In this document: positions 14,613 through 35,655 of the stretch, piece by piece | Layout: each line of letters begins with the position of its first letter | Numbering within the stretch: the stretch's first letter is position 1 | NCBI GenBank assembly: GCA_018818205.1 | Contig: JAHISJ010000002.1 | Location: 3,895 to 67,894 of the forward strand | Direction of reading: 5' to 3' | DNA: 64,000 nucleotides | DNA from: Patescibacteria group bacterium | GTDB taxonomy: Bacteria > Patescibacteriota > JABMPQ01 > JAHIRA01 | Translations under genes and position numbers: made by a program | The notes under the pieces: generated by a model | Seen by the model: only the letters and a program-made list of their open reading frames with translations | Told to the model about the DNA's origin: nothing | Databases searched by the model: none

Positions 14613-15966
14613 AAAAAACAAAGACTCATTTGTATATAAGACAAAAAAAGGGCTTTCTCCAAGTACTGTCTCTGAGATTTCTAAACTAAAAAATGAGCCC
14701 TCATGGATGCGTGAAAAAAGGCTTCATGCCTATTCTTTGTTTAAAAAAAAACCGATTCCCTCGTGGGGCCCTGATCTTTCGAACTTAGATTTTAATTCAA
14801 TCACTTACTTTTTACGTGCAACAGAAAAAACTGAGTCAACGTGGGACAAGGTGCCGGACGATATTAAGAAGACATATGACAAGCTAGGGATCCCCGAGGC
14901 TGAGAAGCAATTTTTGGCGGGTGTTTCTGCCCAATACGAGTCGGAGGTGGTCTATGAAAATGTAAAGGAAGAACTAAAAAAACAAGGGGTGCTTTTTTGT
15001 GATATGGACACAGCGCTTAAAAAACATCCGCAGTATCTCTATGAGTATTTTGGCACACTTGTACCACCTAACGACAACATGTTTGCGTCACTCAACTCAG
15101 CGGTGTGGTCTGGAGGATCGTTTATCTATGTGCCCAAAGGAGTGCATGTTGACTTGCCGCTCCAGGCGTATTTTAGAATAAACGCTGAGCTTTTTGGACA
15201 ATTTGAGAGAACCCTTATTATCGCTGACGAGGGAAGTTTTGTACATTACATAGAAGGATGCACAGCACCGCAATATAGAACCGATTCGTTGCATGCGGCC
15301 GTTGTTGAGATTTTTGTCAAAAAGAATGCGCGCGTGCGGTACACGACTGTTCAAAATTGGAGCAAGAATATTTACAATCTGGTAACCAAACGTGCTAGGG
15401 CGGAGGAAAATGCTATTATGGAATGGGTAGATGCGAACATTGGAAGCGGAATAACCATGAAATATCCAGGCGTGTTTCTTGCAGGAAAAGGGGCAAAGGG
15501 CGAGGTACTCTCGCTCTCTACTGCCGCAAAAGGGCAGGAGCAAGATACTGGCGCAAAAATGATACATGCTGCACCCAACACGTCATCTCGCATTATTTCA
15601 AAGTCTATAGTTAAGGATGGAGGTGTGGGTACGTTTAGGAGCCTTGTTGATATGCAAGAAGGTGCCACTAATGCATCCTCATATGTGTCGTGTGATTCGC
15701 TTATCTTAGACGCACAGTCGCACGCACGCACGTATCCTTACATGAGGGTCAAAGAGGGTGATTCAACTGTTGAGCATGAGGCGACGGTAGAAAAGATAGG
15801 GGAAGAAAAAATCTGGTATTTAGAAAACAGAGGAGTGTCAAAAGAAAACGCAGAAAGCATGATTGTAAACGGGTTTGTTGACCCTATTGCAAAAGAAATT
15901 CCTCTTGAATATGCTATTGAGTTAAACCGATTAATCCAACTCGAAATGGAAGGATCGGTCGGCTGA
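14581..15966 (+). CDS. sufB: Fe-S cluster assembly protein SufB
   Basis: Conserved SufB core (ADEGSFVHYIEGCTAPQYRTDSLHAAVVEI...) and beta-helix C-terminal domain. The start is probably ATG 14602, overlapping the sufC stop. Confidence 0.9.
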   Translation: MLKDIRNMKAKKNKDSFVYKTKKGLSPSTVSEISKLKNEPSWMREKRLHAYSLFKKKPIPSWGPDLSNLDFNSITYFLRATEKTESTWDKVPDDIKKTYDKLGIPEAEKQFLAGVSAQYESEVVYENVKEELKKQGVLFCDMDTALKKHPQYLYEYFGTLVPPNDNMFASLNSAVWSGGSFIYVPKGVHVDLPLQAYFRINAELFGQFERTLIIADEGSFVHYIEGCTAPQYRTDSLHAAVVEIFVKKNARVRYTTVQNWSKNIYNLVTKRARAEENAIMEWVDANIGSGITMKYPGVFLAGKGAKGEVLSLSTAAKGQEQDTGAKMIHAAPNTSSRIISKSIVKDGGVGTFRSLVDMQEGATNASSYVSCDSLILDAQSHARTYPYMRVKEGDSTVEHEATVEKIGEEKIWYLENRGVSKENAESMIVNGFVDPIAKEIPLEYAIELNRLIQLEMEGSVG

Positions 15967-15976
15967 TTTTGATTCA

Positions 15977-16594
15977 TTGACCAAGAGATATCACATGCAA
16001 TTTCACGATATAACAACTGACAAAAAAAAGACCCACGTTGTCCAAACTCCCGGGACACATGTCTTTTTCTTTTTTAATAAAACAGGTGATCTCTCATTTG
16101 ACATTGAGTCAAAAAAAGCGCGCGTGTATATTTTTGGCATGTATTTAGGAAAGAAAAAAGCGCGGTTTTTTGTTAAGACTAGTCAAAAGCATAGTGTAGG
16201 AGACAGCACATCCTCATTGCTTATCAATGGTGTGTTTTTTGACGAGGCGGTATTTGCACACGAAGGCCTTATTACTATTCCAAAAGAGGCAAAGAACGTT
16301 GCAGCCGAGCAGTATGGGCACAACGTTCTTATGTCTAAAAAATGTTCGGTTGAATCAAAACCTTTTTTAGAAATCGATACACATGATGTAACATGTACGC
16401 ACGCAGTAACAACTGGTACACTAAATAAAGAGCAAGTACGCTATCTCATGACCCGCGGAATATCTAAGAAGAAGGCTCAGATCCTCATGCTCAGTGGTTT
16501 TTTTGAAGAGGTTTTTGCAAAAATGCATGACGTGGGAATAACAAAAGAAATAGATGCGTACAAAGAGAAGTTAAGAGAATATCAAACGTCATGA
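15977..16594 (+). CDS. sufD: short SufD-like protein (SufBD C-terminal beta-helix domain)
   Basis: 205 aa matching the SufB/SufD C-terminal domain (LEIDTHDVTCTHAVTTGTLNKEQVRYLMTRGISKKKAQ). Lies in the sufC-B-D-S position. Confidence 0.75.
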   Translation: MTKRYHMQFHDITTDKKKTHVVQTPGTHVFFFFNKTGDLSFDIESKKARVYIFGMYLGKKKARFFVKTSQKHSVGDSTSSLLINGVFFDEAVFAHEGLITIPKEAKNVAAEQYGHNVLMSKKCSVESKPFLEIDTHDVTCTHAVTTGTLNKEQVRYLMTRGISKKKAQILMLSGFFEEVFAKMHDVGITKEIDAYKEKLREYQTS

Positions 16595-17823
16595 TCAATC
16601 CTCACGAGATAAAAAAAGATTTTCCTATTTTTAAAAACAATCCCGACCTCATTTATCTGGATTCGACGGCAACGACTCTAAAACCCCAAGGAGTTGTAGA
16701 CGCATTAACAGAGTACTACGAGGACTATTCGGCTAGTGTGCACAGAGGACTCTATCCTCTTGCTGCGAGAGCTACAAAAGGCTACGAAGACTCGCGTGAA
16801 AAAATAGCAGCGTTTATTGGGGCGGCAAGTGCAAAAGAAGTGGTATTCACGCGAAACACCACTGAGTCGTTAAATGTGCTGGCGTATACGTTTGAATCTC
16901 TTCTTCAGGAAGGAGACGAGATTGTTACCACCGCAATGGAGCACCATTCAAACTTTCTTCCATGGCAGGCGCTTGCAGAGCGAAAAGGTCTTACTCTGAC
17001 GGTGCTTGACGTTACAAAAAAGGGCGAACTCAAAAATATAGATGAGGTACTCAAACAAGCAATTTCAAAAAGAACAAAAGTAGTGACACTCGCTCATGTG
17101 TCAAACGTAACGGGAGTAGTAAATCCCATTAAAAAAATTGTTTCTCGTATTAAAGCCGTAAATCCGGAGTGCATGGTCATAGTTGATGGCGCTCAGTCTG
17201 TGCCACACATGCCAATTAACGTGATAGATTTGGGGTGCGATTTTTTTGCGTTTTCTCTTCATAAAATGCTTGGACCAACAGGTGTTGGTGTACTTTGGGG
17301 GAAAAAGAAAATGCTTGAGATACTGCCGCCGTTTCTGTATGGAGGAGAGATGGTTGAGTCGGTGACCTGGAAAAAAAGTACGTATAAAGAGGTGCCGCAT
17401 AGATTTGAGGCAGGAACACCACACATTGCTGGTGTCATTGCTGCATCCAAGGCTACCGAGTATCTTGCAGGTATTGGGATGGAAGAAGCTCTCATGCACG
17501 AAAAAAAGCTTTTAAGCTATGGACTTTCTGAACTTGAAAATGCATTTGGAAGCGATATAGTTATTATCGGTCCAAAAGACACTTCTTCTCGCATCGGGAG
17601 TCTTGCTTTTTTATTCAAAGAGCATCACCCACACGACATTGCTGAGCTTTTAGGTGAGCAAGGAATCTGTGTGCGTGCAGGAAGACACTGCGCCGCACCG
17701 CTCCATATCGCCTTAGCAATTCAAGCAAGCGTACGTGCAAGTTTCTATGTATATTCAGATAGAAAGGATATTGATACACTTATTGAAGGGCTTAAAAAAG
17801 TAGATGCCATGCTTTCTAAATAA
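16591..17823 (+). CDS. sufS: cysteine desulfurase SufS (class II aminotransferase V)
   Basis: PLP-lysine region SLHKMLGPTGVGVLWG and active-site Cys loop RAGRHCAAPLH. Overlaps sufD by 4 nt. Confidence 0.92.
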   Translation: MINPHEIKKDFPIFKNNPDLIYLDSTATTLKPQGVVDALTEYYEDYSASVHRGLYPLAARATKGYEDSREKIAAFIGAASAKEVVFTRNTTESLNVLAYTFESLLQEGDEIVTTAMEHHSNFLPWQALAERKGLTLTVLDVTKKGELKNIDEVLKQAISKRTKVVTLAHVSNVTGVVNPIKKIVSRIKAVNPECMVIVDGAQSVPHMPINVIDLGCDFFAFSLHKMLGPTGVGVLWGKKKMLEILPPFLYGGEMVESVTWKKSTYKEVPHRFEAGTPHIAGVIAASKATEYLAGIGMEEALMHEKKLLSYGLSELENAFGSDIVIIGPKDTSSRIGSLAFLFKEHHPHDIAELLGEQGICVRAGRHCAAPLHIALAIQASVRASFYVYSDRKDIDTLIEGLKKVDAMLSK

Positions 17824-18183
17824 ATGACCATTTATCAGGATATTATTGTTGATCATTACAGAAACCCCAGAAACAAAGGGGTGCTTGAAGATGCAACAAT
17901 CAGTGAATCGCTTAAGAATTATTCGTGTGGTGATACTATTACCGTGTATTTGAATGTGCAGGATGATACAATAACTGATGTGCGGTTTAAGGGATCTGGC
18001 TGTGCTATTTCTCAAGCAGCTGCATCGATACTATTAGAAAACATTAAAGGGAAATCAATTAATGAAGTAAAAAAACTGACGTATAGTGATATTCAAGAGC
18101 TTCTAGGCGTTAAGCTGAGTCCAGCTCGTGTAAAATGTGCCGAACTTGCGCTTAAAGCAGTGCAAAAAGGCGTAACAAAATAA
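17824..18183 (+). CDS. sufU: SufU/IscU-like sulfur acceptor (NifU N-terminal fold)
   Basis: Conserved Cys-containing motifs [20 protein letters not shown] and ARVKCAELA. Confidence 0.88.
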
Positions 18184-18371
18184 TGTTTAAAAAGATGACT
18201 ACTACAGACAAAAAATATATCTGTACTGAGTGTGAATATATCTATGATCCCTATGTTGGAGAACCGGACAGTGCCATTATTCCAGGAACCCCATTTAATC
18301 ATATTCCGGAAAACTGGCTGTGTCCGGTGTGCGGCGCAAGAAAATCACAGTTTCGTGTGTTAAAAAAGTAA
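18183..18371 (+). CDS. rub: rubredoxin
   Basis: [12 protein letters not shown]...[10 protein letters not shown], i.e. two CxxC(G) knuckles with the canonical aromatic residues. Confidence 0.9.
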
Positions 18372-18379
18372 GTGAACCT

Positions 18380-19087
18380 ATGAAGTACACAGTTATCCTT
18401 CTTGGCAAAAAAACAGTTGCAAAGAATACTGTTGCATTTGAGTTTGAAAGACCAAAAGACTTCACTTTTTGTGCAGGCCAGTATGCCACATTTAAACTTA
18501 TTGACCCGGTTTTCACGGATGAGAAAGGGCCAATGCGGGCAATGTCGTTTGCGTCACCTCCTTCAGCTGACACGCTTCTTATTGCAATGCGTATGTCGGA
18601 CTCAGCGTTTAAAAAATCGATATGCGAGCTATCTTGTGGCGATGTAGTAGAGTTGGAAGGTCCTTTTGGCAAGCTCGTGCTGGATAAAGACGATACGTTG
18701 CCTATTGTTTGTATTGCAGGAGGCATTGGCATCACTCCGTTTATGAGCATGATTTCAGATGAGCAAGAAAAAGGATTCCCGAGAGAAATAACGCTACTCT
18801 ATTCAAATTGTAATCCTGAGGAAGCGACATTTTTTGATGAACTCAATGCTATAATACATAAAAACCTAACCGTTGTTTCTACCATGACCGATATAGAAAA
18901 AAATACTGATTGGCGGGGTGAATGTAAAAAAATTGATCAAGATATAATAGAGAGATACGTATCTAATGATTCTCGTTCACTTTTTTATCTCTGTGGGTCA
19001 ACAGGGATGGTGGTAGCTATGAAAACTATACTTGAGAGCATGGGTGTGCCAAAAGATCACATCAAAATGGAACTGTTTGGTGTGTGA
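18380..19087 (+). CDS. FNR-family FAD/NAD(P)-binding oxidoreductase (possible rubredoxin reductase partner)
   Basis: R-x-M/Y-S FAD motif (RAMSFASPP), GGIGITPF dinucleotide motif and C-terminal CGSTGMV. Confidence 0.75.
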   Translation: MKYTVILLGKKTVAKNTVAFEFERPKDFTFCAGQYATFKLIDPVFTDEKGPMRAMSFASPPSADTLLIAMRMSDSAFKKSICELSCGDVVELEGPFGKLVLDKDDTLPIVCIAGGIGITPFMSMISDEQEKGFPREITLLYSNCNPEEATFFDELNAIIHKNLTVVSTMTDIEKNTDWRGECKKIDQDIIERYVSNDSRSLFYLCGSTGMVVAMKTILESMGVPKDHIKMELFGV

Positions 19088-19191
19088 AGAAGAGTTATCT
19101 GTAGGAAAATAAAAAAATGCAGATTTTTTTCAAAAAACAAAAAAGACTATACGGAGCTGTATAGTCAAAATATATGTTAATAAATCAGAAA

Positions 19192-19929
19192 TTACGATAG
19201 CCAAAGGAGAGGATTCTCCTCTCTTTTTAGTGCGCCGTTTGCAAAAAATTGAGTAAGAATGAGCGCTTGAATTTTCAAAAGACCAAGTTGGAATTTCCCA
19301 GAAAAGCTATTTGCGGGGATAGCAAATACATGGGTCGCAAACCTAATTAAAGCTGATTCGTCAGTTTCATTCTCTTTTGGAATTCGCTCTTCAATCAGCA
19401 GCCGTTCAATTTCCGTTAGTTCAGGAGCTGAAAATCCATCAGGAATATTTGTCATACTTGACTCCACTGAACTAAAAATATTTGGAGTCAACATACGTCT
19501 TTGAGTTTCAGCCTCAATCTCAGTTAAATATTCTTTATTGTGTCCAAATAATAATGAGGCTGCATTGTGTGTCATAAATAAATCGTCTGTCAATTCTCTC
19601 AATTTAGCAGTGACTTTCTCAAAAAAGTCTTTATCATTGGGAGAACAAACAATAGGTTTTTGCGCGCCAGGTTGCACAAGTCCGCCTGTACTGTCACATA
19701 CTAATTGCGCCAACCAGGTTTTTGCTTCTTCAAATGACATATCTGGTTTAAAGTCAAGAAAATGTGAAATCGTGCCAAAGAATATTCTTCGGAAATCAAC
19801 CATCCAAATAATTGCTCTTTGAGGATGCAGGCCTAGATCTATTGAAGCAGTCTCTTGTTCTTCAATGCTGTTTTCTTCAAAAATAATCATCAAAATTTTG
19901 TAAATAACACTCATTACTTTTTTTTCCAT
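19192..19929 (-). CDS. hypothetical cytoplasmic protein
   Basis: 245-aa ORF with no TM and no recognised family. It is the lone minus-strand gene between plus-strand operons. Confidence 0.45.
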   Translation of the reverse strand: MEKKVMSVIYKILMIIFEENSIEEQETASIDLGLHPQRAIIWMVDFRRIFFGTISHFLDFKPDMSFEEAKTWLAQLVCDSTGGLVQPGAQKPIVCSPNDKDFFEKVTAKLRELTDDLFMTHNAASLLFGHNKEYLTEIEAETQRRMLTPNIFSSVESSMTNIPDGFSAPELTEIERLLIEERIPKENETDESALIRFATHVFAIPANSFSGKFQLGLLKIQALILTQFFANGALKREENPLLWLS

Positions 19930-20493
19930 GGTTCCTCCTAAAGCCAGTGTGCATACTAGCTTCGCATTTTAGCACAAGATACATAAAATGCAAGTGTTCC
20001 TAAGCAGGTATCACTCGGGTGAAAGTGATCCGCTGGGATACGACAGAGGTTGGTTTACTGAACGTGTTATTGATTTCTTTGACACACAGCACGGTTTGTC
20101 AAAGAAATTTACTTACACAAAGTGTTTTATTGATTCACAAATCGTTCATGAATTCCTTCGATTATTTCGTGATACAGAATTTAGTGAAGCTTATTCTCCA
20201 GACGGTAGGGTTTACTTGGGAAGCGCTGGCTTGTACGTATAATACTATAACAGCAAGGAAGCTGAAGAACCATTGTTTGAAGAGTAACATAGTTAGAGCT
20301 ACACACTTTTGAGAAATACAGTTATAATGATATGCACAGTGCGTATCATTTTTTTATAAAAAAAGTGAAATCTTTTTCCATGAAAATCATACGTATACAG
20401 TGTACCTTCAACGAGAAATGACATTGACAGAAAAACAAATTAACGATACGATACGCAATACATAACGTATAAGTCGAGTTAGATAAAAACATT

Positions 20494-20820
20494 ATGGCAA
20501 TTCCAAAACGGCGCAAATCAAGTTCAGCGCGTGACAAAAGACGCAGTCACTTGCATCTTGAGGAGCAAACAATTATTACCTGTTCTAACTGCGGTAAACA
20601 TGTTCTTCCCCATCATGCGTGTTTAGAATGTGGATATTATAAAGGGAAAAAGCAGGTAACCGTAGCCAGTGACAAAAAGGAAGATAAGGGAAAAGGAAAA
20701 AAGGAAGATAAGAAGAAAGACGTAAAAAAACGTGACAATAAAAAAGAGAACGAGCGCATAACTGACAAGAAACAACCTGAAGGCAAAAAACGACGTCTCT
20801 TTGCACGAAAAGCAACATAA
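20494..20820 (+). CDS. rpmF: 50S ribosomal protein bL32 with a long Lys/Glu-rich C-terminal extension
   Basis: N-terminus MAIPKRRKSSSARDKRRSH and the zinc ribbon (CSNCG...CLECGYY) match bL32. Residues 60-108 are a KKEDK-type low-complexity tail. Confidence 0.88.
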   Translation: MAIPKRRKSSSARDKRRSHLHLEEQTIITCSNCGKHVLPHHACLECGYYKGKKQVTVASDKKEDKGKGKKEDKKKDVKKRDNKKENERITDKKQPEGKKRRLFARKAT

Positions 20821-20835
20821 ATATAACGCAAAAGA

Positions 20836-21312
20836 ATGGCAAATAGGCACCTTCTTCGTACAATTGTTATGCAAACACTGTACGAATGGGACTTTTATGA
20901 AAAGGATTCTACACGGCTTAAGGATTTTGCAGAAAAAAATATTAAAGAATTTTCAGGCGAAACAGAAGACGTCGATTTTGTGTATGACACATTGGAAGGT
21001 ATTGCATCTCACTGTAAAGAGATAGATGACACCATAATCCAAGCTGCACCAGATTGGCCTATTGATCAAATCACCATGGTTGATAGAAACATCTTACGCA
21101 TCGGCGTGTATGAGCTTACGTATGCAGAAGATATTCCCGCAAAAGTAGCTATAAACGAGGCGATTGAACTAGCAAAGACGTTTGGCGGACGTTCTTCAGG
21201 GAAGTTTGTAAATGGCGTACTTGGAACCATATATCGTGAAATTGAGGCAAAAAGGAGCGAAGAAAAAAGAGAAGAACCTAAGGAGCAAGAAACTAAGGCT
21301 AAAGAGGAATAA
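20836..21312 (+). CDS. nusB: transcription antitermination factor NusB (with K/E-rich C-terminal tail)
   Basis: R-x4-R-x2-A-x-Q-x-LY N-terminal signature ([18 protein letters not shown]) and an all-helical roughly 130-aa core. Tail reads [22 protein letters not shown]. Confidence 0.85.
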
Positions 21313-21320
21313 GGCAAACA

Positions 21321-22034
21321 ATGGAAAAGGACTTTGACCAATTTGAAAAGCGTTTAGGGGTAATGTTTGAAAACAAAGACTTGTTAAAGCAAGCTGTTGT
21401 CCACCGGTCATATTTAAACGAGCACGAGGAATTTAAGCTCTCACACAATGAACGACTCGAGTTTCTTGGTGATGCCGTGTTAGAATTAGTGACTACCGAG
21501 TATCTTTTTAAAACCTATCCAAAAAGCCCTGAAGGCACTATGACCAACTGGCGTGCAGCGGTAGTAAACACTAATATGCTTGCCCAAGTATCAGAGTCTT
21601 TGGGAGTAAATGATTATCTGTATCTCTCAAAAGGTGAGGCGAAGGGAAGTCAAAAAGCGAGAGAGCTTATCTTGGCAAATGCGCTGGAAGCTATTATTGG
21701 TGCATGTTACTTGGATCAAGGATATGATGTCACCAAAAAGTTTATTGTTACCGAGATTCTTATTAAGCTAAAAGACATTATTAAAGAAAATACGTACATA
21801 GATCCAAAATCAAAACTCCAGGAAAAAACCCAGGAAGTGCTCAATGTGACACCAAGTTATAAAGTGCTTAAAGAAACCGGACCAGATCATAAGAAGCACT
21901 TTATTATAGGTGCATATGTAGATGATGAGAAAGTTGGAGAAGGAGAGGGATATTCTAAGCAGCAAGCGCAGGTTGCTGCTGCGAAAGATGCGATCAAAAA
22001 GAAGAAATTTCTAGAGGTTAAAGGGAAGGAATGA
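21321..22034 (+). CDS. rnc: ribonuclease III
   Basis: RNase III signature ERLEFLGDAVLELV plus a C-terminal dsRBD (KSKLQE...GPDHKKHFIIGAYVDDEKVGEGEGYSKQQAQVAAAKDAI). Confidence 0.93.
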   Translation: MEKDFDQFEKRLGVMFENKDLLKQAVVHRSYLNEHEEFKLSHNERLEFLGDAVLELVTTEYLFKTYPKSPEGTMTNWRAAVVNTNMLAQVSESLGVNDYLYLSKGEAKGSQKARELILANALEAIIGACYLDQGYDVTKKFIVTEILIKLKDIIKENTYIDPKSKLQEKTQEVLNVTPSYKVLKETGPDHKKHFIIGAYVDDEKVGEGEGYSKQQAQVAAAKDAIKKKKFLEVKGKE

Positions 22035-22516
22035 TTGAGGTTGTAGCAATACTAGCAACCATTATTTTGATACTTGCCGGCTTTGCCGGTCTTTTTGTGC
22101 CCTACCTTCCTGATGCGCCGCTTGTTTTTGGCGGCATTTTGCTGTTTGCTATTGCTGATGGGTTTGGACATGTTCATCCTGTTACTATCGTAGTGCTAGG
22201 GCTTATAACCCTTTTTGTAACTGTGATTGATCTTGTTGCAGCTGAACTGGGAGTAAAGAAACTTGGTGGTTCAACACTGGCGATGGTGCTTTCAATTGCA
22301 GGAGGCATTGTAGGGGTAATTGGATGGAATATAGCGGGGCTTATAGCAGGGACGTTTCTGGGCGCACTGTTAGGGGAGCTTATTAAAACAGGAGATATTA
22401 AGCAGTCGATTAAAGTAAGCGTTGGTTCACTTCTTGGATTCCTTGCTGGGACACTTTTTAAGGTTATTGTGATGGTTATTATGGTAGGGGTTTTTGTGGG
22501 AGCGTTGATTGTGTAA
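22031..22516 (+). CDS. DUF456-like small membrane protein
   Basis: Four-TM, Gly-rich membrane protein (LILAGFAGLFVPYLPDAPLVFGGILLF). Overlaps rnc by 4 nt. Confidence 0.5.
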   Translation: MIEVVAILATIILILAGFAGLFVPYLPDAPLVFGGILLFAIADGFGHVHPVTIVVLGLITLFVTVIDLVAAELGVKKLGGSTLAMVLSIAGGIVGVIGWNIAGLIAGTFLGALLGELIKTGDIKQSIKVSVGSLLGFLAGTLFKVIVMVIMVGVFVGALIV

Positions 22517-22604
22517 TTGAAAATGGTACTCAATTTTGCTATACTATATTCTAGAAAAACTTGAACCTCTCAAGCAGTGTTAATAGTTACCAAAAATCTT
22601 TTTT

Positions 22605-25250
22605 ATGTATCTCGAAAAAATAGAAATTTCAGGATTTAAATCATTCGCAAAAAAGACAACGCTTGATTTTGCCTCAGGAATAAGTGCCATTGTTGGCCCT
22701 AACGGAAGCGGCAAGAGCAATATCGCCGATGCTATTAGGTGGGTCTTGGGCGAGCAAAGCATGAAGACGCTTCGCGGCAAAAAGTCAGACGATGTTATTT
22801 TTGCGGGGACGGATGCTGCCGGCAGACTTGGCGTGGCGGAAGTTTCTTTGCATTTGAATAATCAAGACAAATCATTCCCTGTCGATTTTGAAAAAGCAGT
22901 CGTGACAAGACGAATTTTTAGAGATGGCGAAGGGGAGTACCTAATCAACAAGAGTAAGGTACGTCTTTTAGACGTACATCAATTACTGGCGCAAGCGGGG
23001 TTTGGACAAAAAACGTACGGAGTTATTGGTCAGGGCATGATAGACAATCTTATCAAGGCAACACCGGCAGAACTTAAGGAAATATTTTACGATGCATGTG
23101 GGGTGAGAGCACTCCAGATTAAAAAAACTATTTCACAAAATAAGCTAGGTGCAACTAAACAAAACCTTGAACGCGGCGGGGATTTAATCAAAGAAATCGA
23201 GCCGAGACTTAAAACATTAAAAAGACAAGCAAAAAAAGCAGAGCAAAAAAAGGAGCTCACATCAGAAAAAGAAGAGATTTTCTTTATGTATTATGGACAT
23301 GTATTTAATACGGTGATGGCAGGAGAATCAGCACTAGATTCAAAAATCGATTCTGCACGGAAAAATGAAAATGAGATGGCACGGACGATCCAAGACATCG
23401 ATAAAAAAATTGATGCTGGGGAAAAAACACACGATACATCTAAACGTGATGCACTGGTGGTGGAAATCGAGTCGATCAAAAGAAAACGAGATGAGAGCAA
23501 CCAAAAACTCTATGTCATCAAAGGGAAAATAGAGCTTGAAAAAGAGCGTAGGACGGACAGCAATGTAGTGAGACTCAAAGAAGAGCAGGAAAAAACAAAA
23601 AGTCTGATAAAAGAAGCGCAGGGAGAATATAAAAAATCTGAAAAAGAAACAGCTCGTCTTGACGGGGAACTTTCTAAGATTATTGGTGAACAAGAAAAGA
23701 TTACGATGCTTATTCAAAAAACAAAAAACACCATTCAAGAAACAGAAAAAAAGATACAAGAAGCCGAGACGGGTGTTTCATTTGAGGACGTAGAAAAAGA
23801 ACTGACTACGCTAGTAGCAAATAGTACAAAAATATCAGAAGCGCTGGGTAGTACAAAAGATGTTCATTTGATTAAGAAAAACATCACTTTGTTTAATACG
23901 TCTCTGAGAAAACTCCTAAAATCAGTTAAAAACAGGCACGGAGATGCAAAACTTGAATCTTTTTTGCGAGAGCTCCACAGCGTAGCAACAAAACAGTATG
24001 AAGACAGAAATAAAAAGATGTCTCGTATTAATGAAGTTAAAGTAGCTCATGCAGTGTCAAAAAATAAACGCGACACCATTAAGCGTGAGATAGATCGCTA
24101 TGGAAGAGAGCTGCAAACACTTTTAGACACCATCCAAAAAAAGGAAGAAGAAGCCAAGGAAGATAGTGGAGAAACCAAGGAGTTGCTAGAGACACAAGAG
24201 AAGCTAGAAAAGGAAATAGCAGGAATAACTGGGGAAATTGAAACGCATGGAAAACACCTTGTAGTACTCAGTAAGGACGATGAAGAGAGAAGAAAAGCGT
24301 TTATGCTTTTGGAAAAGCACTACCGGGAATGTCAGCGGACGCTCAATGCTTGCAAAGATGACATTAGGTCACTTGAAATCCAAAAAGCAGCACTGGAGCA
24401 AAAGCGGAAACAACTGCTTTATGAAATAGGGGAAGACAAAGGATACGACTATATTGATGAATTCAGAAAAAAGTGTGAAAAAAACGCTCCCTCTCTTTCC
24501 AAAGAAAAGGAAAAAGAATATGGGAAACGGCTGGAGACAATTAATCACAGGCTGCAAGGCATTGGGGTGATTGATGAAGAAATGGTACACGAGTATCTTG
24601 AGACTAAGAAACGTTATGACTTCTTAACAAAGCAAAGCAGTGATCTTACAGAGGCAAAATCTAAACTGCTTGCCGTTATTGATGAGCTAAATAACAAAAT
24701 TGATCAAAGATTTAATTCTGGGTTTAATACTATTGGAAAGCATTTTCAAGAGTATTTTAAGACACTCTTTGGTGGTGGAAAGGCGCAGCTTAAAAAAGTA
24801 ATTGTTCATAGGGGTGAAAATGACGATTCCTCTGATATACTTTCAGGAAACCATGAAACAAAGAGAGACGTAGTTATTGAGGTTAAGGCAAACCCTCCGG
24901 GGAAGAAACTGAGAGATCTTTCTATGCTCTCCGGTGGTGAGCGAGCGCTCGCTTCTATTGCACTTCTCCTTGCTATTATTGAGAATAATCCTCCTCCGTT
25001 TATTGTGCTTGATGAGGTAGATGCTGCGCTTGATGAAGCTAACTCTCATAGATTTGCTCAGATAATTCAAGAGGCTTCTTCTAAATCTCAGGTGCTTGCA
25101 ATTACTCACAATAGAGCAACTATGAATATGTCTGAACTGCTCTACGGAGTAACCATGGAAGAAAGCGGAATTTCTAAAATTCTCTCGGTAAAACTTGAGG
25201 AAGCGGAGCATTTGAGAAAAAAAGCAGAAAAACCGGTAAGAGTGTCTTGA
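22605..25250 (+). CDS. smc: SMC-family chromosome segregation ATPase (short, 881 aa)
   Basis: N-terminal Walker A (VGPNGSGKSNIADAIRWVLGEQS), long coiled-coil middle, C-terminal signature LSGGERALASIALLLA and Walker B FIVLDEVDAALD. Confidence 0.8.
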   Translation: MYLEKIEISGFKSFAKKTTLDFASGISAIVGPNGSGKSNIADAIRWVLGEQSMKTLRGKKSDDVIFAGTDAAGRLGVAEVSLHLNNQDKSFPVDFEKAVVTRRIFRDGEGEYLINKSKVRLLDVHQLLAQAGFGQKTYGVIGQGMIDNLIKATPAELKEIFYDACGVRALQIKKTISQNKLGATKQNLERGGDLIKEIEPRLKTLKRQAKKAEQKKELTSEKEEIFFMYYGHVFNTVMAGESALDSKIDSARKNENEMARTIQDIDKKIDAGEKTHDTSKRDALVVEIESIKRKRDESNQKLYVIKGKIELEKERRTDSNVVRLKEEQEKTKSLIKEAQGEYKKSEKETARLDGELSKIIGEQEKITMLIQKTKNTIQETEKKIQEAETGVSFEDVEKELTTLVANSTKISEALGSTKDVHLIKKNITLFNTSLRKLLKSVKNRHGDAKLESFLRELHSVATKQYEDRNKKMSRINEVKVAHAVSKNKRDTIKREIDRYGRELQTLLDTIQKKEEEAKEDSGETKELLETQEKLEKEIAGITGEIETHGKHLVVLSKDDEERRKAFMLLEKHYRECQRTLNACKDDIRSLEIQKAALEQKRKQLLYEIGEDKGYDYIDEFRKKCEKNAPSLSKEKEKEYGKRLETINHRLQGIGVIDEEMVHEYLETKKRYDFLTKQSSDLTEAKSKLLAVIDELNNKIDQRFNSGFNTIGKHFQEYFKTLFGGGKAQLKKVIVHRGENDDSSDILSGNHETKRDVVIEVKANPPGKKLRDLSMLSGGERALASIALLLAIIENNPPPFIVLDEVDAALDEANSHRFAQIIQEASSKSQVLAITHNRATMNMSELLYGVTMEESGISKILSVKLEEAEHLRKKAEKPVRVS

Positions 25251-25309
25251 CTTTACGCCAAATATTATTTACAGTACTTAAAGATTAGTATTAATAAGAG
25301 ATTATACAC

Positions 25310-25924
25310 ATGTTGACTATTCGACTTAACAGAGTGGGAAAACGAAATCATGCCGCGTTTCGAGTGGTGGTAATGGATCACAAAAGAGCGACGGATGCGA
25401 AATTTGTAGACCATATTGGTTACTACGATCCGCACGATCAAAAAGAGCCGTTTCATGTTGATGCAGAAAAAGCAGCGTATTGGATTAGCAAAGGGGCAAA
25501 AGCCTCAACAACTGTTGCATCATTTTTGAACAAAATGGATATTGGCGTAGTGGCACCAGTACGAAAGAAGAAGACAACTAAGCCAAAAAAGAAGGACGAA
25601 GAAGCAAAAAAAGAATCGGCAGAAAAGCAGCCAGACAAGAGAGAAATAGAAGAGAAGACTGAAGAGAAGACTGAAGAGAAGACTGAAGAGAAGACTGAAG
25701 AGAAGACTGAAGAGAAGACTGAAGAGAAGAAAGAGCCACCAGTTGAGGAAAAGAAGGCCGAGACAGAAGACGCTCCTGACAACAAAGGAGAGAAAGAAAA
25801 GCCAAAAAATGACGAGAAAAAAGAAGTAGTAGTAGAAAAAAAAGCCGTTCAAGGCTCTGACGAGCCATCAGACTCTGGAAGAGAGCCAAAGTCTGAAAAA
25901 GGAAAAGACAAGCAAGACAGATAA
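25310..25924 (+). CDS. rpsP: 30S ribosomal protein bS16 with a 120-aa Lys/Glu-rich repeat-containing C-terminal extension
   Basis: First 80 aa (MLTIRLNRVGKRNHAAFRVVVMDHKRATDAKFVDHIGYYDP...) are canonical bS16. The tail holds (EEKT)x6 encoded by a perfect 12-bp tandem repeat. Confidence 0.88.
   Translation: MLTIRLNRVGKRNHAAFRVVVMDHKRATDAKFVDHIGYYDPHDQKEPFHVDAEKAAYWISKGAKASTTVASFLNKMDIGVVAPVRKKKTTKPKKKDEEAKKESAEKQPDKREIEEKTEEKTEEKTEEKTEEKTEEKTEEKKEPPVEEKKAETEDAPDNKGEKEKPKNDEKKEVVVEKKAVQGSDEPSDSGREPKSEKGKDKQDR
25649..25732 (+). repeat. 12-bp coding tandem repeat (GAAGAGAAGACT), six perfect copies plus one degenerate
   Basis: Direct repeat read from the sequence. It encodes EEKT repeats in the bS16 tail and creates spurious long antisense ORFs in the track. 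Confidence 0.95.
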
Positions 25925-26000
25925 GTGATATTGACTTTTACAGTCGTATATGTTATTTTGGAAGTGATTAGTACTTTATTAGTAAACGTAACTTAAAGCA

Positions 26001-26375
26001 ATGGCAGATCAGAACCTGGATCTAGAATTTGTCGACTACGTTGTCAAAGCGCTCGTTGACAACCCAGACAAAGTAGCAATCAATCGAGAAATCGACGAAA
26101 TGGGCGTGTTACTTACTCTTACCGTTGACCCTTCAGACATGGGACAAATCATCGGTAGACAAGGCCAAACTGCAAAGGCTATAAGAACTCTTCTTAAGGT
26201 CGTTGGTGCAAAGAACAACGCACGAGTTAATCTCAAGATTAACGAGCCAGAAGGGTCAAAGAGATCTCCACGTGGAGACGAAGCAAAACCTGAAGGCAGT
26301 GCCCCCGCAGCTCCAGCTCCAGCAGCTCCTGCAGCAGAGGCTGATACCTCAATGGTTGATGATCTCAATCTCTAA
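26001..26375 (+). CDS. KH-domain RNA-binding protein (YlqC/UPF0109 family) with Ala/Pro-rich tail
   Basis: KH fold motif DMGQIIGRQGQTAKAIRTLL. Sits between rpsP and trmD as in the canonical operon. C-terminus reads APAAPAPAAPAAEA. Confidence 0.8.
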   Translation: MADQNLDLEFVDYVVKALVDNPDKVAINREIDEMGVLLTLTVDPSDMGQIIGRQGQTAKAIRTLLKVVGAKNNARVNLKINEPEGSKRSPRGDEAKPEGSAPAAPAPAAPAAEADTSMVDDLNL

Positions 26376-26401
26376 AGATAGTTATCATTTGTATAGTGAA
26401 C

Positions 26402-26430
26402 AAACCCCGCTTAAAAGCGGGGTTTTAGTT
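26402..26430 (+). terminator. rho-independent terminator
   Basis: AAACCCCGC-TTAAAA-GCGGGGTTT hairpin followed by a T run. Confidence 0.7.
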
Positions 26431-26483
26431 GCCGTAAATAATATCACATGATATTATTTTGGCATCGCATTCAATGAATACAT

Positions 26484-27182
26484 GTGATAATGATATTTAT
26501 GCGTTTCAACATCATAACAATCTTTCCTGATATTATCGATTCGTACACAAACGAATCGATTCTTAAGCGTGCCAAAGAAAAAAACCTCATTGAGGTAAAC
26601 GCAATAAACCTACGAGATTTTACCGAGGACAAACATAAAACTACTGACGATGCTCCCTATGGCGGAGGTCCTGGAATGGTGATGAAGGTGGAACCGATAT
26701 GTAAGGCGATACAACATGTAAGGGCGGGTGTAAAGGCGCAAGATTTTGCGTCTCGACAGGCGGTCATCCTCCTCTCCCCGCAAGGTGCTACCTTCACCCA
26801 AAAGAAGGCCCAAGAATTTTCAAAACTCGAAGAGATTACTTTTATTTGCGGGCGTTACGAGGGCTTTGACGCACGAGTCTCCGAATTTGTCGATGAAGAA
26901 ATATCCATTGGCAACTACGTACTTTCTGGAGGAGAGCTCCCGGCACTCGTTATCACCGAGGCTGTTTCCAGATTGATTCCTGGTGTTCTTGGAGATCAGG
27001 AATCATCAGTAGAAGAAACGTTTTCTAAAAGCGATAATTATATTGAGTATCCGCACTATACGCGTCCGGAGGTGTTTGAGGTTGATGAAAAAAAGTATTC
27101 AGTACCGGAAATACTTCTTTCAGGAGATCATGAGAAAATAAAAAAATGGCGAGAAAAGAATGCTCAAAAGAAAAAAGAATAA
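26484..27182 (+). CDS. trmD: tRNA (guanine37-N1)-methyltransferase TrmD
   Basis: MRFNIITIFPD start region (probable start 26499), GGGPGMVM and SIGNYVLSGGELPALV SPOUT-knot motifs. Confidence 0.92.
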   Translation: MIMIFMRFNIITIFPDIIDSYTNESILKRAKEKNLIEVNAINLRDFTEDKHKTTDDAPYGGGPGMVMKVEPICKAIQHVRAGVKAQDFASRQAVILLSPQGATFTQKKAQEFSKLEEITFICGRYEGFDARVSEFVDEEISIGNYVLSGGELPALVITEAVSRLIPGVLGDQESSVEETFSKSDNYIEYPHYTRPEVFEVDEKKYSVPEILLSGDHEKIKKWREKNAQKKKE

Positions 27183-27242
27183 AATTTTTATTCCAAATGT
27201 GTACAATCTGTGCACAACTATCAAAAAAACTCATCAAAGTTC

Positions 27243-27271
27243 TTGACACTTAAAAATTGCTATAGTATATT
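27243..27271 (+). promoter_or_regulatory. strong sigma70-type promoter for the 16S gene (TTGACA-17-TATATT)
   Basis: Consensus -35 and a good -10 with 17-nt spacing, about 130 nt upstream of the mature 16S 5' end. Confidence 0.5.
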
Positions 27272-27400
27272 GAGTAGTGCTCGCAATGGAACGTACGTTT
27301 AACAATTGAATAGTGATAAGAAACCACAAAGTTTTACTGTTCTTTTCAAAAATAGTACTTGAGCTACACTACTACATCCCGTGTAGTAGCAGCAAGCTTT

Positions 27401-27816
<416 letters not shown>

Positions 27817-27961
27817 TCTTTTAATAGGGAAAAAGTCTAGCCCTTTCTGTCTTTTATCAACTTTTTGTGTACAGTAAATAGGACATAAAAAGTGAAGATA
27901 GAAAGTGCACAGTCTTTTGGGCTAGAAGCCAGAAAGGGCTAGATTGATGGTACCTATTGAA
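27817..27961 (+). rRNA. rrs: 16S ribosomal RNA, expanded V3 hairpin segment (about 70 nt longer than typical)
   Basis: The GTAAAG-to-GTGCCAGC interval is about 178 nt, against roughly 105 nt in E. coli. Perfect 15-bp complementary arms GTCTAGCCCTTTCTG (27835-27849) and CAGAAAGGGCTAGAT (27932-27946) close an AT-rich interior. Confidence 0.9.
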
Positions 27962-28987
<1,026 letters not shown>

Positions 28988-29554: not shown

Positions 29555-29631
29555 TGGGCGATTAGCTCAGTTGGTTAGAGCGCGTCACTGATAATGACGA
29601 GGTCCCAGGTTCAAATCCTGGATCGCCCACC
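29555..29631 (+). tRNA. tRNA-Ile (anticodon GAT), CCA encoded
   Basis: GGGCGATTAGCTCAGTTGGTTAGAGCGCGTCACTGATAATGACGAGGTCCCAGGTTCAAATCCTGGATCGCCCACCA. Cloverleaf with anticodon loop CTGATAA; this is the canonical rRNA-spacer tRNA. Confidence 0.95.
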
Positions 29632-29742
29632 ATTCGACAGGCTCATGGTGTTTCACCACGTTTAGGACATTTGAAAATCGCAGTACCATTTTTACCAGTA
29701 CGATTGATTTACTGATGAATCAACCTCACTGGCAAACGTGTT

Positions 29743-35579: not shown

Positions 35580-35655
35580 GGGCCCGTAGCTCAGTTGGTA
35601 GAGCACTTGTTTTGCATACAAGGGGTCAGCGGTTCGAATCCGCTCGGGTCCACCA
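35580..35655 (+). tRNA. tRNA-Ala (anticodon TGC), CCA encoded
   Basis: GGGCCCGTAGCTCAGTTGGTAGAGCACTTGTTTTGCATACAAGGGGTCAGCGGTTCGAATCCGCTCGGGTCCACCA. G3:U70 identity pair, anticodon loop TTTGCAT; this is the canonical rRNA-spacer tRNA. Confidence 0.95.

Follow-up and report, generated by a model that had tools for sequence, protein, structure and literature searches.

The window, a 64-kb stretch of a contig from an uncultured Patescibacteria bacterium, was found to carry rpmF, nusB and rpsP, which encode bL32, NusB and bS16 (Table 1). In each of the three products, the Pfam core was intact and ran on in frame into a charged tail of low complexity. The density of charged residues was compared per 25-aa segment among the 66 ORFs of the window, and the top three values (0.84, 0.80 and 0.72) belonged to these three proteins, with the remaining ORFs reaching 0.64 at most. 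The lengths given in the initial annotation, 108 aa for bL32 against about 57 typically and 204 aa for bS16 against about 85, were correct, and its typical values were fair since solved bacterial bL32 chains have 47-67 aa and the bS16 of E. coli and Thermus 82-88 aa.

Table 1. Coordinates of the genes, tails, repeat and rRNA features in the window
Feature	Position	Strand	Basis or remark
rpmF (bL32, 108 aa)	20494..20820	+	ORF list; Pfam PF01783 Ribosomal_L32p
Three overlapping antisense ORFs, 64-92 aa, over the rpmF tail	20585..20874	-	
bL32 C-terminal tail, about 54 aa, K-rich, net charge +12	20656..20817	+	Coding DNA 75% purine
bL32 tail terminal motif KKRRLFARKAT	20785..20817	+	Near-identical KKRRLFSRKAT in P0122
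nusB (158 aa)	20836..21312	+	ORF list; Pfam PF01029
NusB C-terminal tail, 24 aa, E/K-rich, net charge -3	21238..21309	+	
rpsP (bS16, 204 aa; core aa 1-78)	25310..25924	+	ORF list; Pfam PF00886 Ribosomal_S16
Three overlapping antisense ORFs, 103-110 aa, over the rpsP tail	25453..25889	-	Translations are S/F/L repeats mirroring the tail
bS16 tail, proximal basic segment GVVAPVRKKKTTKPKKKD, net charge about +6	25544..25597	+	
bS16 distal tail, about 108 aa, K/E/T/P polyampholyte, slightly acidic	25598..25921	+	Coding DNA 78% purine
Perfect tandem repeat, 6.8 copies of GAAGAGAAGACT, encoding (EEKT)6 then EEK	25649..25730	+	TRF period 12, 100% matches
16S rRNA gene, 1.5 kb downstream of rpsP	27401..28986	+	Rfam RF00177, 1441.8 bits
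h17 insertion, 99 nt in place of 8-nt tip	27841..27939	+	cmscan alignment, [99] vs [8]

The bL32 core (aa 1-54) matched Pfam PF01783 at aa 2-54 (E 7.4e-21) and the bL32 chains of the PDB at aa 1-55, and it was of the zinc-ribbon form, with Cys30, 33, 43 and 46 retained and invariant in the homologue alignment. The whole protein was identical to P0121, the NCBI 50S ribosomal protein L32 of a Patescibacteria group bacterium. When the 106-aa homologue P0122 was aligned along the tail, both ends of the tail were conserved and the middle had diverged. The dN/dS was about 0.26 for the tail and 0.10 for the core, an estimate based on 51 codons with dS >1. Given this ratio and the conserved terminal motif, the bL32 tail is, as judged from the alignment, constrained and under purifying selection. 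Among the 149 nearest bL32 representatives, which were found with the core alone, 62 had tails of at least 20 aa and 16 had tails of at least 40 aa, and the long tails were mostly K/E-rich. The bL32 of the window lay at the long extreme of these relatives, with 55 aa past the core versus a median of 15.

NusB was covered by its Pfam domain in full length (PF01029, aa 8-134, E 3.3e-35, profile positions 4-133 of 133) and was exactly the sequence of NCBI MBU1118298.1, transcription antitermination factor NusB. Its C-terminal end read as the initial annotation had given it, and an imperfect 15-bp repeat was detected by TRF inside the tail DNA at 21252-21298. NusB tails were general in the related loci, with lengths of 9-63 aa; the E/K-rich extension of the window is short for its clade.

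For bS16, the Pfam core was located at aa 8-66 (E 6.9e-18, profile positions 1-62 of 62), more than 60 PDB bS16 chains matched aa 1-75, and the core was modeled by AlphaFold with pLDDT 84-96. The tail comprised 126 aa in total. Its proximal basic segment was kept in the closest relatives, as VRKKKNSK in P0002 and VRKKKTTKPR in P0003. From aa 90 to 204, the AlphaFold pLDDT was 41-68 without secondary structure, and the tail is thus predicted to be disordered. An E/K-rich single alpha-helix domain was considered for the tail and rejected: no helix was seen in the AlphaFold model past residue 75, and by inspection the EEKT period sets like charges at i+4. Each EEKT unit contributes a net charge of -1, which makes the array acidic, and AlphaFold predicts disorder there; the array would thus be a poor RNA binder, and RNA binding by the slightly acidic distal polyampholyte is unlikely. 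Contact with rRNA expansion segments or substitution for missing ribosomal components, as suggested in the initial annotation, would be plausible only for the basic parts, namely the proximal segment VRKKKTTKPKKK of bS16 and the bL32 tail (+12).

The length comparison across relatives proposed in the initial annotation was carried out, and bS16 tails of 27-94 aa were present in all 29 other related Patescibacteria loci with a callable bS16. The closest other species (L030) had the same gene order, and its bL32, NusB and bS16 measured 87, 160 and 165 aa. The first list of bS16 homologues was biased by its word index to tails containing EEKTE, and it was therefore not used to claim conservation of the EEKT motif. 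The lysine fraction of the bS16 tails dropped with rising GC of the locus (Spearman -0.68, without phylogenetic correction), as expected for weakly constrained sequence.

A second repeat search agreed with TRF on an in-frame 12-bp array in rpsP. The six identical units reported at 25649-25720 were present, a partial seventh, GAAGAGAAGA, came after them, and no other perfect tandem repeat of period 6-30 reached three copies in the 64-kb window. With its identical units set head to tail and a unit length divisible by three, the array has the make-up of a coding VNTR, and the identity of the units points to recent slippage, as had been proposed. The independent assembly ERZ27247128 was 100% identical to the window over 15310-25682 and showed no difference up to 28875 (about 13.5 kb) except a 48-bp indel in the repeat. 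This gap equals four units and corresponds to 25649-25696. There were six full EEKT units in the window and two in ERZ27247128; these were the two fully resolved alleles seen, and both kept the frame and the same bS16 C-terminus. In a third sample, a Logan k=31 contig was an exact match to the rpsP tail in its 3' part. The window allele contains the initial 30-mer of this contig five times and the short allele contains it once, and the start point of the contig thus fits a de Bruijn graph branch from an allele of at least three units. The protein collection contained neither the 204-aa bS16 of the window nor a variant with 0, 1, 3, 4, 5, 7 or 8 units. A phase-variable contingency locus was also considered and rejected, since the 12-bp unit is four codons, both alleles are in frame, and copy changes cannot switch expression on or off.

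The probable length polymorphism suggested in the initial annotation is thereby supported, in that two otherwise identical assemblies differ by six versus two units, with collapse by an assembler as the rival. The short allele was found in one contig only, the MEGAHIT-style k141_801820, and iterative-k assemblers can bring collapsed repeats forward from low k. This contig also parts from the window sequence where the 16S gene ends (3' end), which makes a nearby join doubtful in at least one of the assemblies. Nevertheless, the full array is 82 bp, below both k=141 and the typical read length, and true spanning k-mers should therefore have existed; the indel spans a whole number of units and keeps the frame; the long allele fits the break of the Logan contig independently; and in another lineage the length of the repeat region also differs between related bS16 proteins (P0004, 185 aa, versus P0011, 141 aa). 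An assembly effect, in which the array was collapsed or expanded by one assembler and all cells carry a single allele, is accordingly rather unlikely, though it keeps appreciable weight.

The antisense ORFs over the rpsP and rpmF tails are spurious by-products of a purine-rich sense strand. The purine fraction was 0.75-0.83 in the tail-coding regions versus 0.53 in the window. The initial annotation had ascribed these ORFs to the repeat; they are indeed spurious, but they arise because the whole tail-coding regions are purine-rich, and not from the 82-bp repeat alone.

The cmscan alignment of the 16S rRNA gene revealed a truncated helix h6 and an insertion in h17. The insertion folded as a long hairpin with a perfect 16-bp basal stem (z-score -5.2), and no Rfam family matched it above threshold. 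Its place at the h17 tip adjoins the position of bS16 on the 30S subunit, and it lies about 2 kb downstream of rpsP. With its 99 nt at a stem-loop tip, it fits the class of short insertions (up to 250 nt, lacking an ORF or intron signature) that are common at such tips in CPR rRNA genes (PMC11270868). None of the related loci compared contained a 16S gene, and the 23S gene lies outside the window.

These features raise the question of whether the tails compensate for, or partner, changes of the CPR ribosome, bS16 with the altered h6/h17 corner including the 99-nt insertion and bL32 by filling the loss of H98. The truncated h6 and the hairpin at the h17 tip are both present in the 16S of the window itself. 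In solved ribosomes, bS16 touches h17 and its extension reaches uS4, and in C. acnes it replaces an h10-h17 RNA contact (PMC10085706, PMC12123416); CPR 16S genes often lack parts of h6, h10 and h17, and bL32 adjoins the H98 gap (PMC9297842). The bL32 tail would suit such a role, being basic, apparently constrained and equipped with a conserved end motif. However, the bulk of the bS16 tail, repeat included, carries net negative charge with predicted disorder, bS16 tails are found in all relatives whatever their length and also in phyla with normal rRNA, and excision may remove the h17 insertion as an intervening sequence. Compensation or partnership is therefore unlikely. A bolder version is still less likely: that the bS16 tail and the h17 hairpin share one corner of the 30S body and form a lineage-specific protein-RNA surface module there, that the conserved bL32 anchor docks at the lost H98, that CPR ribosomes systematically trade rRNA elements for tethered tails, and that the number of EEKT units tunes the reach or charge of the module between strains.

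A proteome-wide K/E drift in a reduced, AT-rich genome, with tails in no way particular to these three proteins, is a very improbable explanation. The genome has about 40% GC and a purine-loaded coding strand, the window proteins contain about 8% K and about 8% E, and the lysine content of the tails follows GC; yet the charged fraction per 25-aa segment exceeded 0.7 in only 3 of the 66 ORFs, most window proteins had no such tail, and relatives at 36-57% GC also had tails, with different composition. That the extensions are products of a frameshift, a missed stop or misassembly, the true proteins being of canonical length, is effectively refuted: assemblies are error-prone at low-complexity repeats and Tsurumaki et al. 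caution about ribosomal protein genes of abnormal length in CPR MAGs (PMC9297842), but all three genes were identical and in the same frame in the independent assembly apart from the repeat indel, the 3' part of the rpsP tail was matched exactly by the third sample, homologues of other species had comparable in-frame tails, and the bL32 tail appears to be under purifying selection, so that the extensions of bL32, NusB and bS16 are regarded as genuine.

These results most probably reflect lineage-typical disordered tails on the intact cores of rpmF, nusB and rpsP, which are resized by slippage, with the basic parts as anchors and the distal part of bS16 as a spacer. The purine-rich tail DNA would lengthen and shorten as short repeats slip in frame or recombine unequally, and the (EEKT)6 array, acting as a variable-number tandem repeat, would represent the most recent resizing event. 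Two basic stretches, the opening 18 aa or so of the bS16 tail and the bL32 tail including its end motif, may be located at the surface of the ribosome and bind rRNA or adjacent proteins, by analogy with the bS16 extensions that reach uS4 and h17 in solved ribosomes. The acidic polyampholyte of distal bS16, repeat included, would be a solvent-exposed spacer tolerating changes in length, so that changes of copy number would be nearly neutral.

The charged tails are an ordinary case of a known CPR feature, and the apparently variable repeat inside an essential gene is a useful added detail. Their presentation as unusual in the initial annotation was too strong, since low-complexity bS16 tails and larger CPR bL32 proteins have already been published (PMC6821194, PMC9297842). 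In genome annotation, charged tails of this length on CPR ribosomal proteins should be kept whole and not treated as errors, nor should antisense ORFs over such tails be called genes. The rpsP repeat would offer a cheap strain marker within an essential gene, and would illustrate how low-complexity tails of ribosomal proteins are built and resized over short time scales. If the tails did partner rRNA changes peculiar to the lineage, for instance the h17 insertion, this would bear on how reduced CPR ribosomes hold together.

Extended bS16 proteins are seen in the ribosome structures of C. acnes (8crx, 147 aa), M. smegmatis (156 aa), M. tuberculosis (162 aa), P. gingivalis (9i5v, 192 aa) and F. 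johnsoniae (7jil, 188 aa). For three of these species, C. acnes, M. smegmatis and P. gingivalis, the C-terminal extension binds uS4 and contacts h17, its distal part being unresolved (PMC10085706, PMC5876184, PMC12123416). Like the bS16 of the window, these proteins of Actinobacteria and Bacteroidota have a canonical core that leads directly into an extension, which in them measures 60-100 aa and lies at the edge of the 30S body. Their proximal part touches uS4 or h17 and their distal part is flexible and unresolved, which is paralleled in the window by a conserved basic proximal part and a tail predicted to be disordered. No convincing similarity was found between the window tail and their uS4-binding segments. 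The tail of the window is longer (126 aa), it is K/E/T-rich whereas theirs are A/E/P-rich, and it differs from them by its perfect DNA tandem repeat.

S16 is among the bacterial proteins richest in low-complexity regions (Ntountoumi et al. 2019, PMC6821194). Ribosomal regions of this kind consist mainly of A, E and K, and the lysine-rich ones have been read as nucleic-acid binding (PMC6821194). The S16 regions in that survey are mostly A+E; the bS16 tail of the window has K in place of A, in line with low GC, and bL32 and NusB were not highlighted there. For CPR bacteria, bL32 has been listed as a larger ribosomal protein, and an Ala/Lys-rich C-terminal region has been reported in Parcubacteria uS19, the functions of such CPR regions being uncharacterised (Tsurumaki et al. 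2022, PMC9297842). That study did not single out bS16 or describe tandem-repeat polymorphism. The repeat of the window resembles in-frame bacterial VNTRs in its identical head-to-tail units and in a unit length divisible by three; the copy-number difference between otherwise identical assemblies, if biological, would be a further parallel. Most descriptions of in-frame coding VNTRs concern surface or secreted proteins; unlike those, the putative VNTR of the window sits in the gene of an essential ribosomal protein.

In Pfam searches, complete domains were identified in all three proteins, Ribosomal_L32p at residues 2-54 of bL32 (108 aa), NusB at residues 8-134 of NusB (158 aa) and Ribosomal_S16 at residues 8-66 of bS16 (204 aa), and the sequence past each core was charged and of low complexity. 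The three ORFs thus agreed exactly with the initial annotation, whose observation of Lys/Glu-rich C-terminal extensions was real and accurately reported; its typical lengths for bL32 and bS16 were also fair, as the chains in solved structures are 47-67 aa for bacterial bL32 and 82-88 aa for bS16 of E. coli and Thermus. When charged-residue density was calculated in 25-aa windows for 66 ORFs, the three highest values (0.84, 0.80 and 0.72) belonged to these three proteins, and every other ORF reached at most 0.64, which indicated that the tails are specific to these proteins and not proteome-wide. A match of the bS16 tail to XRCC4_C (E = 0.0015, below the Pfam cut-off) was dismissed as a low-complexity match.

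Positions of the features in the window
Feature	Position	Strand	Remark
rpmF	20494-20820	+	encodes bL32
nusB	20836-21312	+	encodes NusB
rpsP	25310-25924	+	encodes bS16
Tandem repeat in rpsP	25649-25730		6.8 copies of GAAGAGAAGACT, 100% matches
khpA	26001-26375		
Internal stretch of KhpA	about 26301-26335		PAAPAPAAPAA, from imperfect 6-, 9- and 15-bp repeats
16S rRNA gene	27401-28986		
h17 insertion of 16S	27841-27939		99 nt in place of the 8-nt tip
Divergence from L001	28876-29100		inside h44; L001 13520-13800
tRNA-Ile(GAT)	29556-29632		
tRNA-Ala(TGC)	35580-35655		

A frameshift or missed stop codon, an artefact of the kind that the initial annotation had named as refuting its reading, was effectively excluded. 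The tails are in the same frame in L001, an independent ENA assembly (ERZ27247128, contig k141_801820), the Logan contig L036 is in agreement, and in-frame tails of like type were found in related species.

Across the 64 kb, the array in rpsP, detected with Tandem Repeats Finder, was the sole perfect tandem repeat of period 6-30 with three or more copies. The same genes are present in L001, which showed 100% identity to window 15310-25682; up to window 28875, its sole difference was a 48-bp gap within the repeat, exactly four units. Its bS16 is accordingly 188 aa, with two EEKT units versus six, and the rest is identical. Six versus two units against zero substitutions in about 13.5 kb supported the proposed slippage and length polymorphism, and fits, at the sequence level, the pattern of a putative fast-mutating in-frame VNTR. 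A long allele was also supported in a third sample, SRR6514274, from which L036 was assembled. This contig equals window 25701-27436 exactly, and the last base of its initial 31-mer is the earliest one to tell repeat exit from repeat continuation; the initial 30-mer is present five times in the window allele and once in the two-unit allele. Since Logan uses k=31, only an allele of at least three units would be expected to break the contig here. The short allele is known from one contig only, and collapse of the array by an iterative-k assembler might have produced it, but the 82-bp array is shorter than both k=141 and the typical read length. The copy-number polymorphism is therefore probably real. 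Exact-pattern scans of metagenome_contigs with the repeat's left flank and with the rpsP core gave no match and no more alleles, and exact look-ups in the protein collection returned neither bS16 variants with 0, 1 or 3-8 EEKT units nor the 204-aa bS16 of the window itself. In another lineage, two closely related bS16 homologues, P0004 (185 aa) and P0011 (141 aa), differed in length by about 44 aa within an imperfect (EEKTExKV)n region of the protein alignment, which is an independent case of repeat-driven length variation in a bS16 tail.

The lengths of rpsP, rpmF and nusB were compared across relatives, and the tails proved recurrent. Loci were drawn from GTDB species representatives by the bS16 core alone (three-sequence alignment), so the sample was unbiased by the tail; the best match was 44% identical, the window's own genome not being among the representatives. 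A bS16 tail of 27-94 aa was present in 29/29 related loci with callable bS16, L030 (the closest other species) and L032 included, and the 126-aa tail of the window was the longest. The lysine fraction of these tails dropped with rising locus GC (Spearman -0.68, not phylogeny-corrected) and glutamate stayed near 0.2, a pattern expected of tails that keep their character but are weakly constrained in sequence. EEKTEEK-like motifs in many first-round bS16 matches were rejected as evidence of conservation, since those candidates had been preselected by 5-residue words in common with the query. NusB tails were general in the related loci (9-63 aa, net charge -9 to +18), and that of the window (23-24 aa) lay toward the short end.

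Moraniibacteriota-like relatives had a bL32 of 66-68 aa and L030 one of 87 aa, and the homologues P0122 and P0123 measured 106-107 aa. Among the nearest 149 representatives, obtained by an index-free HMMER search with a 56-aa core query, the tail past Pfam position 53 had a median of 15 aa and reached at least 20 aa in 62, at least 40 aa in 16 and at least 50 aa in 7, mostly K/E-rich and net basic. With 55 aa, the window bL32 tail is the long extreme of a recurrent feature and not unique. In many extended bL32 tails of other lineages (P0124-P0126, P0166, P0181, P0187, P0263 and P0278), a variable charged linker led up to a terminal LS(L/I/W)E(E/G)LS(K/R)K, which suggests a candidate tethered terminal docking motif distinct from the KKRRLFARKAT of the window. 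All four zinc-ribbon cysteines, kept in the window bL32, were gone from the 87-aa bL32 of L030 (L030 4235-4498), a switch between Cys-containing and Cys-free bL32 inside one family-level lineage. P0134 (1413 aa), which matched part of the zinc-ribbon core in 14 separate stretches, is built of a repeat of ~55 aa containing CRPCGAHLLP; it is probably not a ribosome-related protein but a repetitive or mis-predicted one.

The bS16 tail opens with a basic stretch, GVVAPVRKKKTTKPKKKD, of net charge about +6 that is conserved in the closest relatives, followed by about 108 aa of slightly acidic K/E/T/P polyampholyte to which each EEKT unit adds -1. In the AlphaFold model, the core was well predicted (pLDDT 84-96) and residues 90-204 had pLDDT 41-68 without secondary structure, which led to rejection of the EEKT array as a single alpha-helix. 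The bL32 tail has a net charge of +12, and its conservation relative to P0122 (65% identical) covers the initial ~12 residues and the final eleven (KKRRLFARKAT). Rough Nei-Gojobori estimates of dN/dS, with dS >1 and only 51 codons, were about 0.10 for the bL32 core and 0.26 for the tail, the latter value pointing to purifying selection on the tail. Solved ribosomes of three organisms show a bS16 extension that runs as far as uS4 and touches h17, with the distal part unresolved (PMC10085706; PMC5876184; PMC12123416). The basic parts of the tails may act at the surface as anchors to rRNA or adjacent proteins, and the acidic distal part of bS16, repeat included, would be a flexible spacer tolerant of length change, which would leave copy number free to drift. 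Of the functional interpretation, only the part that concerns the basic segments is plausible.

The rpsP and rpmF tails are each overlain by three long antisense ORFs. Where the tails are encoded, purines make up 75-83% of the sense strand versus 53% window-wide, so the antisense strand is pyrimidine-rich and almost without stop codons. The cause of these ORFs is the composition of the whole tail and not the repeat alone, to which the initial annotation ascribed them and which covers only 82 bp.

The gene order was Suf genes, rpmF, nusB, rnc, DUF456, smc, rpsP, khpA, trmD and the 16S rRNA gene, and the order from rpmF to rpsP was kept in Moraniibacteriota-like genomes and in L030. Database names on identical or related proteins were Patescibacteria group bacterium, Pacebacteria, Kerfeldbacteria and Moraniibacteriota. 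The internal stretch of KhpA was missing in L030 and is followed by DTSMVDDL(N/G)L, a C-terminal motif that is conserved; it gives this operon a second linker built from repeats ahead of a conserved terminal motif. A 68,630-bp NCBI/JGI contig with identical bL32 and NusB had no record of the 204-aa bS16 or the exact KhpA, and the public record may differ from the window around rpsP or be without these gene calls. No 23S gene followed the 16S gene, and 23S and 5S were absent from the 64 kb, which indicated unlinked rRNA genes; the two tRNA genes are 6 kb apart with protein genes between. After 13.5 kb of identity, the window and L001 diverged abruptly inside h44. Pairing in h44 and h45 is good in both versions, with differences that compensate each other, and the two share no related DNA downstream; the cause is either a chimeric join in one assembly, at a conserved region near 16S position 1400, or recombination there.

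The idea of the initial annotation that the tails may compensate for changes in the ribosome gained a concrete spatial basis, since bS16 adjoins h17 in known structures, where the extended h17 of P. gingivalis touches bS16 (PMC12123416), and bL32 adjoins the H98 gap (PMC9297842). The 16S rRNA of the window is itself altered relative to the Rfam bacterial model: h6 is 14 nt shorter, and the h17 insertion is predicted to form a long hairpin whose basal stem is a perfect 16 bp (z-score -5.2), all Rfam matches to the insertion being far under their gathering scores. It could be kept as an expansion segment, but it could also be an intervening sequence excised by RNase III, because short insertions at stem-loop tips are frequent in CPR rRNA genes (PMC11270868). 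The 16S gene was in none of the related loci searched for covariation of h17 state with bS16-tail length.

Three features appear to be undescribed so far: a 12-bp repeat in rpsP that is perfect and apparently polymorphic, a bL32 tail of unusual length that ends in a conserved motif, and the co-occurrence of this long tail with an h17 insertion. In CPR bacteria, 16S genes are often without parts of h6, h10 and h17, bL32 is listed with the enlarged ribosomal proteins, and uS19 is described as having Ala/Lys-rich C-terminal regions (PMC9297842); the long bL32 of the window is in line with this enlargement. The low-complexity tails of bS16 belong to the most common regions of that kind in bacterial proteins (PMC6821194), and the bS16 tail of the window is of the same sort.
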